DNA from: Planctomycetota bacterium
GTDB taxonomy: Bacteria > Planctomycetota > PLA2 > JAEUHO01
Length of the DNA: 64,000 bases
Assembly: GCA_965223505.1 (NCBI GenBank)
Contig: CBDCWP010000031.1
Coordinates: forward strand, 64,001 to 128,000
Direction of reading: 5' to 3'
The notes under the pieces are model-generated. The model had not been told where the DNA came from and searched no databases. It worked only from the letters and a program-made list of their open reading frames with translations. Shown here piece by piece: positions 56,465 to 61,204 of this stretch. How positions within the stretch are numbered: position 1 is the first letter of the stretch; the number at the start of each line of letters is the position of its first letter. Both the position numbers and the translations under genes were made by a program.

Positions 56465-56935
56465 TCAATCGTCGAGGGGCAGCGGTGCGGGCGTGAATCC
56501 GTCGTCGTAATGAATGAGCGGCGGCGCACCCGGGGCGTCCGCGGTCAGGTCGGCGCCGTTCGCGACGCGTCGTCCGTGCTCGATCCAGGGCTGAAGCTCC
56601 GACCAGAGCCGGTCCCAACGGACGTGGTCGGTATCGCCGTCGTAGTCGCGCACCTTCTCCGTGGCCTGGGCCATGAGCTTGGCGAACCCGCTCGCGTGAA
56701 ACCCGCGCGAGAGATGCACGAACGCGGCCGCGTACTGGATGAGCCCCTGGATCCAGAGCCGGTTCGCGCCCTCGCTTTCGTGCCAGATCTCCTCCCAGTC
56801 CTCGTGGGCTTCGTAGAACCGCCGGGCGTTGAAGTACGCCACGGCACGATCGAACCGCCCCCGCCGTTCCTCCGCGCTCATGAAGTCGTCGTCGGTGACC
56901 ACGACGGGAGTGTGCCACACCCGGGCGTCCGTCAC
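56465..56935 (-). CDS. DUF309 family protein
   Basis: FN...FYEAHE.WE.IW, QGLIQ.AAA..H. Confidence 0.85.
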   Translation of the reverse strand: MTDARVWHTPVVVTDDDFMSAEERRGRFDRAVAYFNARRFYEAHEDWEEIWHESEGANRLWIQGLIQYAAAFVHLSRGFHASGFAKLMAQATEKVRDYDGDTDHVRWDRLWSELQPWIEHGRRVANGADLTADAPGAPPLIHYDDGFTPAPLPLDD

Positions 56936-56999
56936 CCGAACCGAACCCTCGTTGCTATCCTGCGTTGCATTCCCCGGACCCCACCTCAGGAGTCGATCC

Positions 57000-58256
57000 A
57001 TGCGGCACGCACTGCTGTTCCTTGCGCTGACGGCCTGTTTGCTTCCGGCCTGCGGCGACGACACGACCAACGAACCTGCGAACAAGGGCAACGCCGGCGC
57101 GAGCGCGAACAAGGCGCCCGCCGAAGGCGACGGTGCGACGACGGACGCGGTCACCGCAGCGATGAAGAAGGGCCGCGCGTTCCTGCTCTCCCAAATGAAC
57201 GACAAGGGGGCGGTCGGCGACAGCGCGGCGAAGGTTCCGCCGAATCCCGGCTTCACGGCGCTGGCCGCGGGCGCGATCATCGGCGCCACGCCCCGTGACG
57301 CCGTACGCAACGACGAGGACATCGAGCGGGCGCTGTCGTTCCTGATCGGCTTCCAGCAGGAGAACGGTGCGATCGTCGATGGGTCGGGCAAGGACAACTA
57401 CGTCACGAGCGTCGTCATCGCGGCTCTCGCCGCGTCGCGGATTCCGGACTACGCCAAGCCCATGGCGGCCGCGCGCGACTACATCGTCGGCTCGCAGATC
57501 ACCGGCGACGAAAACGATCTCTCTTTCGGCGGCGTTCCGTACAAGCAGGACGACGGGCAGCCCTCCGACCTGTCGAACCTTCAGTACGCGGCCGAAGCGG
57601 CCAAGGCGGCCGGCCTACCGAAGGATCACGTGTTCTGGAAGAACACGTTGAAGCTGCTCGAGCGCTCGCAGAACAACTCGGAGTACAACACGGTCACGCA
57701 CGAGGTGGAGCACGACGGAGAGACGATCGTCGTCGTGTCGGGCAACGACGGCGGCGCCGGCTACGGCCCGGGCATGACCAAGGCCGATCCGCCCTACGTG
57801 AAGCGTGCCGACGGCAAGTGGGAGGTCAAGAGCTACGGCTCGATGACCTACGCGCTGTTGAAGTGCTACCTGTTCGCGGGTCTCGGCGCCGACGATCCGC
57901 GCGTGAAGGCGGCCGTCAGCTGGATCTCGAACAACTTCACCGTGGATCGCAATCCCGGCTTCGAAGGCGCCGAGGATCCGGCCAAGGCCGGTTGGTCGGG
58001 CTTCTACTACTACCTGCACGCCGCGGCGCGCGCGCTCGGCGAGTACGAGGCGGTCACCGGAAAGCCACTGGTCGTGACGGACGCCAACGGCGTCAAGCAC
58101 GACTGGCGCAAGGAGATCGGCGAGAAGCTCGTCTCGCTGCAGAACGACGACGGCAGCTGGCAAAACGAGAACCCACGCTGGTACGAGGGCATGAAGGTCA
58201 TCTCGACGAGCTACGCCCTGCAGACGCTGGCGTTCGTGCAGAACCGCCTCCCCTGA
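57000..58256 (+). CDS. Prenyltransferase/squalene-oxidase-repeat (alpha/alpha barrel) lipoprotein
   Basis: Lipobox LPAC; QQENGA, D.SN.QYA, NDGGA.Y, SYGSMTYA.LK, QNDDGSW QW-like repeats. Confidence 0.85.
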   Translation: MRHALLFLALTACLLPACGDDTTNEPANKGNAGASANKAPAEGDGATTDAVTAAMKKGRAFLLSQMNDKGAVGDSAAKVPPNPGFTALAAGAIIGATPRDAVRNDEDIERALSFLIGFQQENGAIVDGSGKDNYVTSVVIAALAASRIPDYAKPMAAARDYIVGSQITGDENDLSFGGVPYKQDDGQPSDLSNLQYAAEAAKAAGLPKDHVFWKNTLKLLERSQNNSEYNTVTHEVEHDGETIVVVSGNDGGAGYGPGMTKADPPYVKRADGKWEVKSYGSMTYALLKCYLFAGLGADDPRVKAAVSWISNNFTVDRNPGFEGAEDPAKAGWSGFYYYLHAAARALGEYEAVTGKPLVVTDANGVKHDWRKEIGEKLVSLQNDDGSWQNENPRWYEGMKVISTSYALQTLAFVQNRLP

Positions 58257-58276: not shown

Positions 58277-58942
58277 ATGCGGTGGCTCTGCACCGCGCTC
58301 GTCCCGCCCTGTGTCGCGCTTGCGATCGCCGGCGGTGCGCCGGACGACGCGCGCGGGCTCTTCCAGGCGCATCTCGGCGCGCTCGTGGCCGTCGCCGCGA
58401 CGTGCGCCTTCGCGGTGCGCGCACGCATCGGGGACGCGGTCGCGCTCGTCGTCGGCGCCGGGCTGTGCGCGGTCGTGCATCTCGCGTGGCGCGGAACCGA
58501 CGGTGCGTTCGCCCTCGCCGTGCTGGTCGCCGGGTCCGGAGCGGCGTCGTCGGGCCTGGCCGCGGTCGGGCGCGCGATCGGTGCGTCCGCGTTGCCGTGC
58601 GGCGCGCTCGGCGCGGCCGTCGTGTGGGCCGCGATGTCGGGCGTCTTCTGGGCGGACGACGTCGCCGCGTCCCTGCCCTACGGCAAGCAGCACGCGTTTC
58701 GGCAGGCCGTGTTGCACGCCGACGCCGCGACCGCCTGTGCGTACGGCGTGGCGCACTTCGACCGCCTGCACGACCCGGTCGTGTACGCCCGTGCCCGCCT
58801 CGCGGAGACGCTCTTGACGCGGCCGGATCCGCTGCCGACGGGTGCGCTTTGGCTCTGTCTTGGCCTGCTCGCGTGGACCGTGGCAGTCTGGCGCGGCGCG
58901 GACCGCGAGGCCGCCGCCACCGACGATGACGAACCAAGCTGA
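58277..58942 (+). CDS. Integral membrane protein of unknown function
   Basis: Several Ala/Gly-rich hydrophobic helices; co-oriented and closely spaced with flanking genes. Confidence 0.6.
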   Translation: MRWLCTALVPPCVALAIAGGAPDDARGLFQAHLGALVAVAATCAFAVRARIGDAVALVVGAGLCAVVHLAWRGTDGAFALAVLVAGSGAASSGLAAVGRAIGASALPCGALGAAVVWAAMSGVFWADDVAASLPYGKQHAFRQAVLHADAATACAYGVAHFDRLHDPVVYARARLAETLLTRPDPLPTGALWLCLGLLAWTVAVWRGADREAAATDDDEPS

Positions 58943-60302
58943 TCCCACGCCGCAACACGTGCTCGTCGTCGGAGCGGGCGGGATCGGATGTCCGGCGGCC
59001 TGGGGGCTGCGGGAGCGCGGCACGCCGCGCGTGACGCTGATCGACCCGGACGTCGTCGAGGCGTCGAACCTGCCGCGCCAGGTGCTCTACACACCGGACG
59101 ACGTGGCGCGTCCGAAGGCCGAGGTGGCTGCCGAGCGGTTGGGGGGCGCGGCGCGCGGCGTCTTCGGCGTGCACGCCCGCCTGGACGATGCGAACGCCGA
59201 CCGCTTCCTCGACGGCGTCGACGTCGTCATCGACGCGACGGACGGCGCGCGCGTCAAGGACTGGGTCAACCAGCTGGCGGTCCGCACGCGCCTGCCTCTG
59301 GTTCACGCGGCGGGCTTGCGCGCGGAGGCGCGGCTGCTGCCGGTGCCGGCGGGCGGCCGGCCCTGCCTGGCCTGCCTGTTCGGGCGGCTCGAGGACGAGA
59401 CCGGTTCCTGCGCCGACCTCGGCGTCTGGAACGCGGCGGTGGGGACGGTCGGCTTCCTTGCTGCGCAGTGCGCGCACGAGCTCGCGGCGCGCCGGGCACG
59501 GGCGGCGTATCACGTGCTCGATTTCGAGACGCTTCGTCGCACCGATCTGGACGTGCGGCCTGACGACGCGTGTCCGGTTTGCGTGACGGAGGGCGCGCCG
59601 GTCGAGGCGTACCCCGATGACGCCGCGTGCGCGCCGACCGAGCCGGCGCAGGCCGCGATGCCGTCCGGCGACGTGCTGGATCTGGTCGAGGAACGCTGTC
59701 CGATGAACCTCCTGCGCGCTCGCCGCGCGCTCGAAGCGTGCCCGGTGGGCGACGTGCTCGAGATCCATCTCGGCGCGGAAGGCGCGGAGACCGTGCCGAG
59801 CGGGGTGCAGGCGCTCGGCCACGACGTGATCCTGCGCGAACCGCTCGGCGCGGGACTGCGGCTCGAGGTGCGGGCGGGCGACACGGCCGACCGGGCCGTT
59901 CTCGATCCGGGCGCCCTGAAGCGCTTCGCGCGGCAGGTCGTGTTGCCCGAGATCGGCGAGGCGGGGCAGGCACGACTACGGGACGCGACGGTGTCGGTGC
60001 GCGGCACGGGCGCCGCGCTTGCGTCCTGCGCGCTCTATCTCGCTGCGAGCGGCGTCGGCATGCTCTACGTGCAGGGCGACGTCGCGCCGTTCGGCGCCGC
60101 CTCAATCGTCGACGTCTGTGCGCGCCGGTCGATCGGCACCGTGACCGCCTGCGACCACGAGCCGCGCGTCGACGTCGTCTGCGACACGGACACCGTCGAC
60201 GGCGTCGTCGCGTCCATCGCGGGGGACGACGCCCTCGCGCGCGGGGCCGTCTTCGCGCATCGCGTCCAGCGGGAGATCGTGAGCGCCTACGACGGCAAGT
60301 GA
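58926..60302 (+). CDS. ThiF/MoeB adenylyltransferase - TusA - degenerate ThiF fusion
   Basis: VLVVGAGGIG, IDPD.VE.SNLPRQ, DATD, CLAC, SC...G, CPVC; LDL..ERCPMN TusA-like; RFARQVVLPEIG.AGQ.RL. Confidence 0.85.
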   Translation: MTNQADPTPQHVLVVGAGGIGCPAAWGLRERGTPRVTLIDPDVVEASNLPRQVLYTPDDVARPKAEVAAERLGGAARGVFGVHARLDDANADRFLDGVDVVIDATDGARVKDWVNQLAVRTRLPLVHAAGLRAEARLLPVPAGGRPCLACLFGRLEDETGSCADLGVWNAAVGTVGFLAAQCAHELAARRARAAYHVLDFETLRRTDLDVRPDDACPVCVTEGAPVEAYPDDAACAPTEPAQAAMPSGDVLDLVEERCPMNLLRARRALEACPVGDVLEIHLGAEGAETVPSGVQALGHDVILREPLGAGLRLEVRAGDTADRAVLDPGALKRFARQVVLPEIGEAGQARLRDATVSVRGTGAALASCALYLAASGVGMLYVQGDVAPFGAASIVDVCARRSIGTVTACDHEPRVDVVCDTDTVDGVVASIAGDDALARGAVFAHRVQREIVSAYDGK

Positions 60303-61204
60303 CGGTAGAGATTCAAGTAGAAGCTCAGGACGCGCGCGGCGATCACGCCGCCGATGACCAACATCATCACGACCGGCAGGATGGCCGTGGTCTTCTTGCG
60401 GCGCAGCTCCACGTCGAGCTCGAGCTCGGAGGCGATTCCGCGCGCGGCCTGCGCCGTCTCGCCGGCGCGCTCGGCGGCGATGAGTCGGTCGGCGAACGAA
60501 TGCGGGATCGTCTTCCAGGCGCCCCCCAGATCGAGGCCCTCGCGCACACGGCTGCGCGCGTTGTAGAGATCCACGGCGGCGCGCCCGCCCGCGCCCGCGA
60601 CGACGGCCAGCTCCAGCGTTTCGTTCAGCGGCACCCCCGCCTGCTCGCACGCGGCCAGCACGGTGAACGCGCGCGCGTCGGCCTCTTCGACGCGGTTGCG
60701 TGTGAGCAGGTTGTTCGACGGCGGCCGCGGGGCGACGATCTCGTTGGGCACCGCTTCGGGCACGCTCGCGCGCCTCGAGAGGATGACGTAGAGGAGGACC
60801 GGGACGAGTGTCGCGGCGCTCCACTTGAGTCCGGCAAAGAACTCGCCCTTGACCCAGTCGGGGCCCGCGAGCAGGACGGCGCCGAGGCAGGCGAGGAACA
60901 TGGGGTAGGCGAGCGCGGCCTTGCGCTGCTTCGTGCGGCGCGCCTCCTCTTCGTGGGCGTCGGCGATCTGCGCCAGGGTCTGCTCGAGGGTGCCGCTCTT
61001 CTCGCCGGCGTGCAGCAGGGCCCGGTCCACGGGCGTCACGAATCGTTGAAGCGCGGACGCCAGGCTCTCCCCGCCCGCGAGGGCGTCCCGCGCTTCGTGC
61101 AACCGGCCGTCGCGGCCGCCGGCGGACTCGACGATCTCGGGCCAGGACAGGCCCGCCCGGTAGAGCGTCGCCATGCTGCGAAATTGTGCCGCTTTCAATG
61201 CCAT
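60287..61204 (-). CDS. Type II secretion / type IV pilus F-family (GspF/PilC-like) membrane protein
   Basis: GESLA.AL, AGEKSGTLE..L..IA, ALAYP, AGVPL.E.L, AERAGE. Confidence 0.82.
   Translation of the reverse strand: MALKAAQFRSMATLYRAGLSWPEIVESAGGRDGRLHEARDALAGGESLASALQRFVTPVDRALLHAGEKSGTLEQTLAQIADAHEEEARRTKQRKAALAYPMFLACLGAVLLAGPDWVKGEFFAGLKWSAATLVPVLLYVILSRRASVPEAVPNEIVAPRPPSNNLLTRNRVEEADARAFTVLAACEQAGVPLNETLELAVVAGAGGRAAVDLYNARSRVREGLDLGGAWKTIPHSFADRLIAAERAGETAQAARGIASELELDVELRRKKTTAILPVVMMLVIGGVIAARVLSFYLNLYRHLPS

Follow-up and report, generated by a model that had tools for sequence, protein, structure and literature searches.

A ThiF-TusA fusion protein of Planctomycetota carrying a degenerate ThiF remnant: a probable single-chain, asymmetric counterpart of homodimeric MoeB/ThiF enzymes

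Domain organization of the fused protein

The gene described here lies at positions 58926..60302 (+ strand) of a 64,000-nucleotide stretch of a Planctomycetota bacterium genome (assembly GCA_965223505.1, contig CBDCWP010000031.1, positions 64,001 to 128,000), referred to below as the window. It is a single open frame of 458 codons plus a stop, in which three parts can be recognized, all on the + strand: an active adenylation domain of the ThiF/MoeB type (residues 1-222, 58926..59591), a TusA/SirA domain (residues 249-316, 59670..59873), and a C-terminal module of about 135 residues with a truncated and degenerate ThiF fold (the C-module, residues 325-458, 59898..60299). We propose that this protein is probably a housekeeping E1-like adenylyltransferase for sulfur carriers, with a single asymmetric chain in place of the usual homodimer and a TusA domain in cis. 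Annotation pipelines label these proteins 'ThiF family adenylyltransferase' and miss the C-module.

The ATG at 58926 is consistent with the N-termini of 27 aligned homologues, and lies inside the 3' end of the upstream gene, with an overlap of 17 nt with its stop. The in-frame stretch upstream of it, back to a GTG at 58842, encodes no RYxRQ-like helices. For these reasons a wrong start or a frameshift was rejected as the cause of the missing N-terminal helices described below.

The adenylation domain and the TusA domain

The N-terminal domain matches the Pfam ThiF profile (PF00899) over residues 10-217, which correspond to profile positions 21-237 of 238 (E 9e-50), and it aligns by hhalign with positions 33-255 of a profile of 16 canonical MoeB proteins (E 8e-58). 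It begins at strand beta1, without the N-terminal RYxRQ helices, and the first structural element of its model is a strand at residues 11-15. A Foldseek search with the full model identified ThiF (1zud) and MoeB (1jw9) as similar to this domain, with a template modelling score (by target) of 0.78-0.81 and 28-30% sequence identity, and this search matched the N-domain only.

Motif conservation was counted in an alignment of 78 of the ThiF-TusA homologues. The nucleotide loop GAGGIG (residues 16-21, 58971..58988) follows the pattern GxGGxG in all 74 rows without a gap at this position. Within the ATP motif SNLPRQ (residues 47-52, 59064..59081), N48, R51 and Q52 are present in 78 of the 78 homologues, and D40, K64, D103 and D106 are equally invariant, so that the ribose Asp, the phosphate Lys and the Mg Asp typical of the family are accounted for. 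Two CxxC pairs (C147 and C150, 59364..59375; C216 and C219, 59571..59582), both conserved in 78/78, are predicted to form a structural zinc site. Cys162 of the crossover loop (59409..59411; 78/78) falls in the hhalign column of the conserved Cys of canonical MoeB, and would be equivalent to MoeB Cys187 and ThiF Cys184, as these are numbered in a passage of PMC13139853. The crossover region itself is short (residues ~150-168) and has no inserted domain. Judged from its sequence, every catalytic feature tested places the N-domain in the ThiF family; it departs from that family in lacking the N-terminal helices and in scoring below the curated equivalog cut-offs given further below.

A linker of variable sequence, residues 223-248 (59592..59669, + strand), connects this domain to the TusA domain; it is modelled with low confidence (predicted local distance difference test score, pLDDT, of ~60 in the blocks covering 231-250). 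The TusA domain was identified with Pfam PF01206 at residues 250-306, scoring 37.8 bits within the whole protein and 42.2 bits when the domain is taken alone (cut-off 28.6), and is predicted to adopt a beta-alpha-beta-alpha-beta-beta arrangement (strands 250-253, 277-282, 300-307 and 310-316; helices 260-271 and 284-296). Its Cys258, in the motif ERCPMNLL (59697..59699), is the presumed persulfide carrier; C258, P259, N261 and L262 are found in 78/78 homologues. No rhodanese match (PF00581) was found in the 458-residue protein.

The C-module as a remnant of a second ThiF domain

When the last 129 residues are searched alone, Pfam aligns them only with positions 1-49 of the ThiF profile, at 26.1 bits (E 5.7e-6), which is below the cut-off of 28.1. 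The relationship is clearer with hhalign, in which residues 325-385 align with positions 9-69 of the canonical MoeB profile (probability 99.1%, E 1.5e-18). From these positions it follows that the C-module opens with the two N-terminal helices that are missing from the N-domain, and continues with a beta1-alphaA-beta2 unit of its own. The motif RFARQ (residues 333-337, 59922..59936) is aligned with RYNRH of canonical MoeB and is putatively the counterpart of the arginine fingers MoeB Arg14 and ThiF Arg11; R336, V339, G347 and G376 are invariant in the 78 homologues, and Q337 and Q348 are each present in 77. The glycine loop of the C-module, VRGTGAAL (residues 358-365, 59997..60020), is degenerate, with G360 in 71/78, G362 in 57/78 and the third glycine absent, and throughout the 78-row alignment the C-module has neither an SNLxRQ motif nor a conserved Asp after beta2. 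With the loop decayed and both of these elements lacking, the C-module cannot be an ATP site. The module ends with a long helix (residues 436-456, 60231..60293), conserved at G440 (74 of 78), A444 (76), D445 (71) and R449 (75). Its middle part is variable and has been deleted entirely in 4 of the 22 homologues aligned for this region, and therefore the conserved core amounts to about 80 residues: alpha1-alpha2, beta1-alphaA-beta2 and the last helix.

Structural comparison of the C-module model with 48,161 chains (VIA Z) supports its origin from this fold. It matches E1-like folds over 126-132 of 136 residues, from their N-terminal helices to the long helix, with Z scores of 13.4 for Uba4, 11.3 for MoeB, 11.0 for NAE1/APPBP1, 10.7 for TcdA, 10.6 for UBA1 (residues 52-420), 10.0 for SAE1 and 9.7 for Tcd1. 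Inactive partners are thus among the best matches (NAE1, SAE1, Tcd1 and the inactive domain of UBA1). A simple circular permutation of the helices alone is not favoured, given the module's own beta1-alphaA-beta2 unit, its long helix and its fold of a ThiF remnant.

A first-pass annotation of this DNA, made from the sequence alone, had already described intact nucleotide, zinc and Cys motifs in an N-terminal ThiF domain starting directly at strand 1, and a TusA/SirA-like domain between two ThiF parts. The present data agree, as the motifs are invariant across homologues, the Pfam and hhalign alignments start at profile positions 21 and 33, and the TusA match is above cut-off with Cys-Pro in 78/78. 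The missing RYxRQ-type segment, placed by that annotation at about 59920, is the RFARQ at 59922-59936. Of the 'second degenerate ThiF copy' proposed there, the degeneracy stands (VRGTGA, no SNLxRQ), but it is a remnant of ~135 residues and not a full copy.

Predicted packing of the C-module on the adenylation domain

The AlphaFold model of the full chain has a pLDDT of 92.7 and a predicted template modelling score (pTM) of 0.91; the three domains reach pLDDT values of 91-98, and only the linker at 231-250 is weak. Folded alone, the C-module reaches a pLDDT of 78.3, and its first helices score 61-69 in isolation versus 85-94 within the full chain, a gain that fits a need for the N-domain in order to become ordered. 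Complex prediction was performed with the N-domain (1-235), the C-module (323-458) and ATP as separate chains, in three runs with three controls. The C-module docked on the N-domain with an interface score (ipSAE) of 0.93 in all three runs (best of the three controls, 0.00), with a contact agreement of at least 97% and a partner pLDDT of at least 88. Of 157 solved complexes, 116 attain this docking mark, as do 2 of 215 mismatched pairs; these counts apply only roughly to the present case.

On the N-domain side, the predicted interface comprises alphaA (23-30), the 3-10 segment with SNLPRQ (46-51 and 53-58), residues 71-73, the turn between beta5 and beta6 (132-133), the last part of the crossover loop together with the long helix (162-181), and residues 198-205. 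The C-module contributes alpha1 with RFARQ (329-337), residues 339-342, its own alphaA' (363-376) and the long helix (435-448). Residues 332-337 are predicted to contact residues 46-51, i.e. RFARQ lies against SNLPRQ, and from this contact Arg336 may insert into the ATP site. In the prediction, the C-terminal helix lies antiparallel along helix 169-187 of the N-domain (contacts 177-438, 174-441 and 173-441). In the dimer of TcdA, as described in passages of PMC4405576, the interface is formed by alpha1, alpha3, alpha4, the long alpha8, a 3-10 helix by which the nucleotide site is shaped, and the loop joining beta5 and beta6; alpha8 and alpha8' run antiparallel, alpha1 touches the 3-10 helix of the opposite monomer, and few structures are as well conserved with MoeB and ThiF as these interface helices. 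Since the predicted interface elements match this list, the C-module occupies, in the model, the place of the partner subunit on the canonical dimer face. The asymmetry of the protein is self-consistent, as the N-domain has lost the helix that serves the ATP site of a partner, and the C-module has lost that ATP site.

Covariation points to the same surfaces at one position. The top inter-domain covarying pair, 169-448, stands well clear of all others, and both residues lie in the predicted interface; N is combined with Q or E in 56 rows, and P, G or S with L, M or C in 20. The tightest predicted contact, 177-438, is F-A in 43 rows and A-F in 4. The suggestion of the first-pass annotation that the two ThiF parts form an active/inactive E1-like pair is supported at the level of the model, in which the C-module is predicted to pack on the N-domain.

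Distribution and phylogeny

A word-indexed search yielded about 85 proteins with ThiF and TusA domains, mostly of 440-550 residues, and all of the source names given are Planctomycetota. A pattern scan of species-representative genomes found 27 loci, of which 25 are titled Planctomycetota, -ia or -ales. The RFARQ-type motif was present in 22 of 24 loci checked; one of the other two had no pattern match and one was frameshifted. When 301 genomes sampled evenly across the phylum were searched, a match including the TusA part was found in 9 of the 10 other genomes of the window's GTDB family and in none of the 290 genomes outside this family. In the 47 remaining genomes with a match, the alignment starts no earlier than query residue 38, corresponding to an ordinary MoeB N-terminus. 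Genomes of the same order contain rhodanese-ThiF proteins instead, and others in the phylum contain ThiF-rhodanese proteins, all with a normal RYARH/Q start.

The possibility that the fusion is an assembly artefact, raised in the first pass, is rejected, as the architecture occurs in at least 78 clusters from many sources and in 25 loci of Planctomycetota metagenome-assembled genomes (MAGs), on many independent contigs. Conservation of the C-module among homologues, on which the same annotation had made its proposal depend, is likewise evident from R336 (78/78). A gene of this family's genomes that had seemed to be split proved to be a frameshifted copy. At L044:1600-3650 (- strand), in a genome of the family, the ThiF-TusA gene is broken over at least three frames, either as a pseudogene or by indel errors in a long contig.

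A tree of adenylation domains was made from 38 hand-chosen rows, including 11 of the 78 fused proteins, and was rooted at the midpoint only. The N-domains of the fused proteins form one clade (support 100/100), which groups with two-domain ThiF-TusA proteins and with P0087, a single-chain protein described below (92/85), and which falls outside the clade containing the planctomycete rhodanese-MoeB proteins (98/92). The tree permits no claim on a donor or on the order of events.

Split and rearranged relatives

Three loci of the pattern scan outside Planctomycetota, titled 'bacterium', Candidatus Binatia and 'delta proteobacterium', contain same-strand gene sets (L034:9938-14210, L038:9941-12689 and L039:9857-14363). 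Each encodes an active ThiF of 251-272 residues without RYxRQ, a ThiS-family carrier ending in GG, and a CysM-like pyridoxal phosphate (PLP) enzyme; L034 and L039 also contain a ThrC-like PLP enzyme and a NIL-domain gene. All three end with a second, degenerate ThiF of 219-280 residues that starts with RYSRQ; in two of the three it has a decayed glycine loop and lacks SNLxRQ. From their sequences, these loci look like two-gene active/inactive E1-like pairs for carrier-dependent synthesis of cysteine or methionine.

A metagenome scan that used a two-domain ThiF-TusA protein as query turned up three contigs extending downstream of the match (L045:132-1863, L046:230-2176 and L047:1-1409), in which a ThiF without RYxRQ is fused to TusA and is followed by a small ThiF. 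In all three, the small ThiF starts with RY(A/S)RQ; it has 157 residues in L047, where it has no Pfam match at E <=0.01, and runs off the contig end in L046. In L045 and L047, both of which could be read through, a gene for a GG-ended ThiS-like carrier lies between the two, and in L045 a CysM-like gene comes next. All three parts of the window protein thus recur as separate neighbouring genes beside a carrier gene, and this provides independent support for their joint action on carriers. Single-chain versions without TusA also exist: P0087 (392 residues) has an active followed by a degenerate ThiF, and P0187, whose name assigns it to a Myxococcota MAG, and P0178 (386-396 residues) have the reverse order, being the only two such clusters found. 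A specific kinship between the C-module and the stand-alone degenerate ThiF proteins is not detectable beyond their shared first ~60 residues. Stand-alone C-modules of the EAWLRRYARQ type, and proteins consisting of TusA plus C-module, are probably fragments, as they come from contigs of 584-2399 nt or start at internal Met residues.

These forms together suggest, tentatively and at somewhat less than even odds in our estimation, a widespread and unrecognised asymmetric class, in which a helix-less active ThiF is combined with a small ATP-blind remnant, the two being encoded separately or as a fusion of either order, and TusA being present or absent. If so, the step from homodimer to active/inactive pseudo-dimer, thought to be typical of E1 enzymes of the eukaryotic type, would have happened repeatedly in sulfur metabolism, and the minimal remnant of about 80 residues would delimit what a second subunit truly has to provide.

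Genomic context and likely substrates

The genome to which the window belongs (5.15 Mb) contains no other match to PF00899 or to PF01206 than the fused gene. As the first-pass annotation had stated, there is no ThiS/MoaD gene in the window, and the four PF02597 matches of the genome are all on other contigs. Elsewhere in the genome there are a MoaD, ending in PPVGGG and encoded directly before MoaE, and a ThiS, ending in FVGGG and encoded directly before ThiG, and a third ThiS-family protein ends in ALSGG. Four genes with rhodanese domains and seven of the Aminotran_5 family are also present, as is MoaC. Among 10 related genomes, eight have no ThiF-family match besides the fused gene. Most simply, the protein would activate MoaD and ThiS as a housekeeping enzyme, and perhaps the third carrier as well. 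The substrate, which the first-pass annotation had left unassigned, is therewith narrowed to the carriers of a genome with MoaD-MoaE, ThiS-ThiG and a third GG-ended protein and with this ThiF as its only one.

The gene of the third ThiS/MoaD-family protein (genome G000, contig C12:64776-64994, - strand; locus L006:1498-1833) adjoins a gene for a 357-residue protein resembling BNR/sialidase-type repeat proteins.

In the window, the fused gene is preceded on the same strand by a gene for a hydrophobic/membrane protein of 221 residues without a Pfam match (58277-58942, +), homologues of which are found immediately upstream of the fused gene in five other loci (36-54% identity over the aligned stretch). 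Before it lies a gene for a probable secreted protein of 475 residues (56829-58256, +; no Pfam match at E 0.1), which is conserved in 15 other loci, likewise ahead of a ThiF-TusA gene. On the opposite strand, a convergent gene similar to type II secretion system (T2SS) protein F (60287-61204, -), with two PF00482 stretches, overlaps the 3' end of the fused gene by 16 nt and occupies the same place in nine other loci. A functional operon with these neighbours is unsupported, and their conservation looks like plain synteny.

Proposed mechanism and alternative explanations

We propose the following scheme. The N-domain would be the sole active site, binding ATP-Mg together with the Gly-Gly at the C-terminus of a carrier (MoaD, ThiS and probably the third GG-ended protein) and forming the acyl-adenylate. 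The C-module would be an ATP-blind remnant in the position of the second subunit, supplying the dimer-interface helices and placing Arg336 and Gln337 beside the phosphate-binding SNLPRQ, as MoeB Arg14 and ThiF Arg11 are placed from the partner subunit. A cysteine desulfurase would load a persulfide onto Cys258 of the TusA domain; in cis, this persulfide would attack the adenylate, after which the crossover-loop Cys162 would resolve the resulting acyl-disulfide and so release the thiocarboxylate. The loading, attack and resolution steps are modelled by analogy on the scheme for MOCS3, with its Cys239, and on the proposal for the TusA persulfide of E. coli. Packing of the C-module in cis rather than in trans is likewise what we would expect.

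A number of observations weigh against this scheme, or at least against parts of it, and some of them favour other explanations. As to the packing, the docking result may be a memory of solved ThiF/MoeB homodimers, and the covariation is weak overall: only one pair among the top 20, and seven among the top 50, join interface with interface (background 6.2%), in rows that are related to each other. Also, chains that are folded separately cannot distinguish packing in cis from packing in trans. A domain-swapped homodimer, in which each C-module would sit on the N-domain of the other chain and two sites would be completed in trans as in MoeB, would therefore pass the docking equally well. The roughly 100 residues of linker, TusA and second linker between the parts would permit such a swap, and classical bacterial MoeB and ThiF enzymes are all described as homodimers in passages of PMC10557695 and PMC12355090. 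The single-chain model is nevertheless confident as one body, and we consider the swap rather unlikely.

As to the substrates, the genome is only 92.5% complete; a second ThiF-family gene is present in 2 of the 10 related genomes, and one genome of the same family, 92% complete, has no match. The NCBIfam equivalog cut-offs are not reached, either for ThiF (TIGR02356, 162.4 versus 275) or for MoeB (TIGR02355, 124 versus 376.6; NF006444, 157.6 versus 449). The conserved neighbours (secreted protein, membrane protein, T2SS-F-like protein and uvrB) give no pointer to sulfur metabolism, and the split relatives are found in operons of the CysO/CysM type and not in those for molybdenum cofactor or thiamin. 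Such operons, with their ThiS-like carrier and CysM-like or ThrC-like PLP enzymes, together with the unmet cut-offs and the presence of the third carrier in the genome, could indicate an enzyme dedicated to one special carrier, e.g. for cysteine or homocysteine synthesis of the CysO type with the third GG-ended protein. However, no other ThiF-family gene was found that could serve MoaD-MoaE and ThiS-ThiG, either here or in 8 of the 10 relatives, and neither a carrier nor a PLP enzyme is among the conserved neighbours. Moreover, TtuC is reportedly a single E1-like enzyme that serves several carriers, which we also count against a dedicated enzyme; this explanation is decidedly improbable. The passage on TtuC in PMC5372717 covers TtuB only.

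As to the arginine, MoeB and ThiF can dispense with their fingers according to a passage of a 2026 paper, which also states that the finger is absent in TcdA (PMC13139853). Arg336 may accordingly matter less than the interface, and the main job of the C-module may be the interface itself. The further step, in which the C-module would be a non-catalytic structural cap or regulatory tail and the TusA domain a binding or regulatory domain instead of a persulfide relay, could appeal to the dispensable finger, to the freely deleted middle of the C-module and to the other roles that TusA-fold proteins have, but it is very improbable, since a mere cap needs no invariance of Arg and Gln, and R336 is invariant, Q337 and Q348 are nearly so, and the Cys-Pro of TusA is found in 78/78. 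The asymmetric single-chain adenylyltransferase with TusA in cis thus remains, in our view, the probable explanation.

Comparison with known systems

The N-domain shares with E. coli MoeB and ThiF (1jw9, 1zud, 1zfn) its fold, all catalytic residues, the zinc site and the crossover-loop Cys, and the substrates of these enzymes, GG-ended beta-grasp carriers, are of the kind proposed for the fused protein. Both of these enzymes form symmetric homodimers that have two active sites and in which every subunit has its own arginine-finger helices, and the fingers MoeB Arg14 and ThiF Arg11 complete the site of the neighbour (passage in PMC13139853). In contrast, in the fused protein these helices are carried by a degenerate remnant of the same chain, and a TusA domain is built in.

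A MoeB-like domain fused to a persulfide-carrying domain is also found in MOCS3, Uba4 and MoeZ, although the persulfide role is presumed for the protein described here. In MOCS3, it is in cis that the rhodanese domain works, and the disulfide is resolved by Cys239, as stated in a section of PMC5372717. Rhodanese is unrelated to TusA, and the MOCS3/Uba4/MoeZ proteins are homodimers with full N-terminal helices; in the fused protein TusA would stand in for the rhodanese domain of MOCS3/Uba4. For E. coli, it has been proposed that MoaD-AMP on MoeB receives its sulfur straight from the TusA persulfide (same article, PMC5372717), and Iyer et al. 2006 noted, in a passage of PMC1779556, that rhodanese-less E1-like genes always adjoin a SirA/TusA gene in sulfur-assimilation operons. 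In both of these cases E1-like protein and TusA are separate, whereas here they are fused, and this TusA is the only one in the genome. A natural fusion of MoeB/ThiF with TusA supports the E. coli proposal.

An active domain combined with a degenerate one is known from SAE1-SAE2, NAE1-UBA3, UBA1, BilD and Tcd1-Tcd2, although the pseudo-dimer of the fused protein is a predicted one. In BilD, an Arg of the inactive domain completes the active site, and the 2023 preprint on this protein describes, in the passage concerned, all other known bacterial E1-like proteins as homodimers (PMC10557695). UBA1 and BilD have the order inactive-active, and the fused protein has the order active-carrier-inactive. 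Its inactive part has only ~135 residues (~80 in some homologues), it has no crossover-loop Cys domain and no ubiquitin-fold domain as in canonical E1, no E2 is part of the system as described here, although the genome was not searched for one, and the proposed pathway is sulfur transfer and not conjugation. Neither a ThiF-TusA fusion nor an asymmetric MoeB/ThiF was found described in the full-text literature searched, outside of which many subscription papers fall, among them the treatment of the E1-like superfamily by Burroughs, Iyer and Aravind from 2009, which might mention such architectures.

The protein would thus represent a second way in which bacteria arrived at an E1 design with an active and an inactive half, for housekeeping sulfur transfer instead of conjugation or defence, and with the reverse domain order, in which the inactive half has been reduced to the Arg-Gln helices, one beta-alpha-beta unit and an interface helix. 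If it is monomeric and has a single site, it would provide a handy minimal system for the contribution of the partner subunit.

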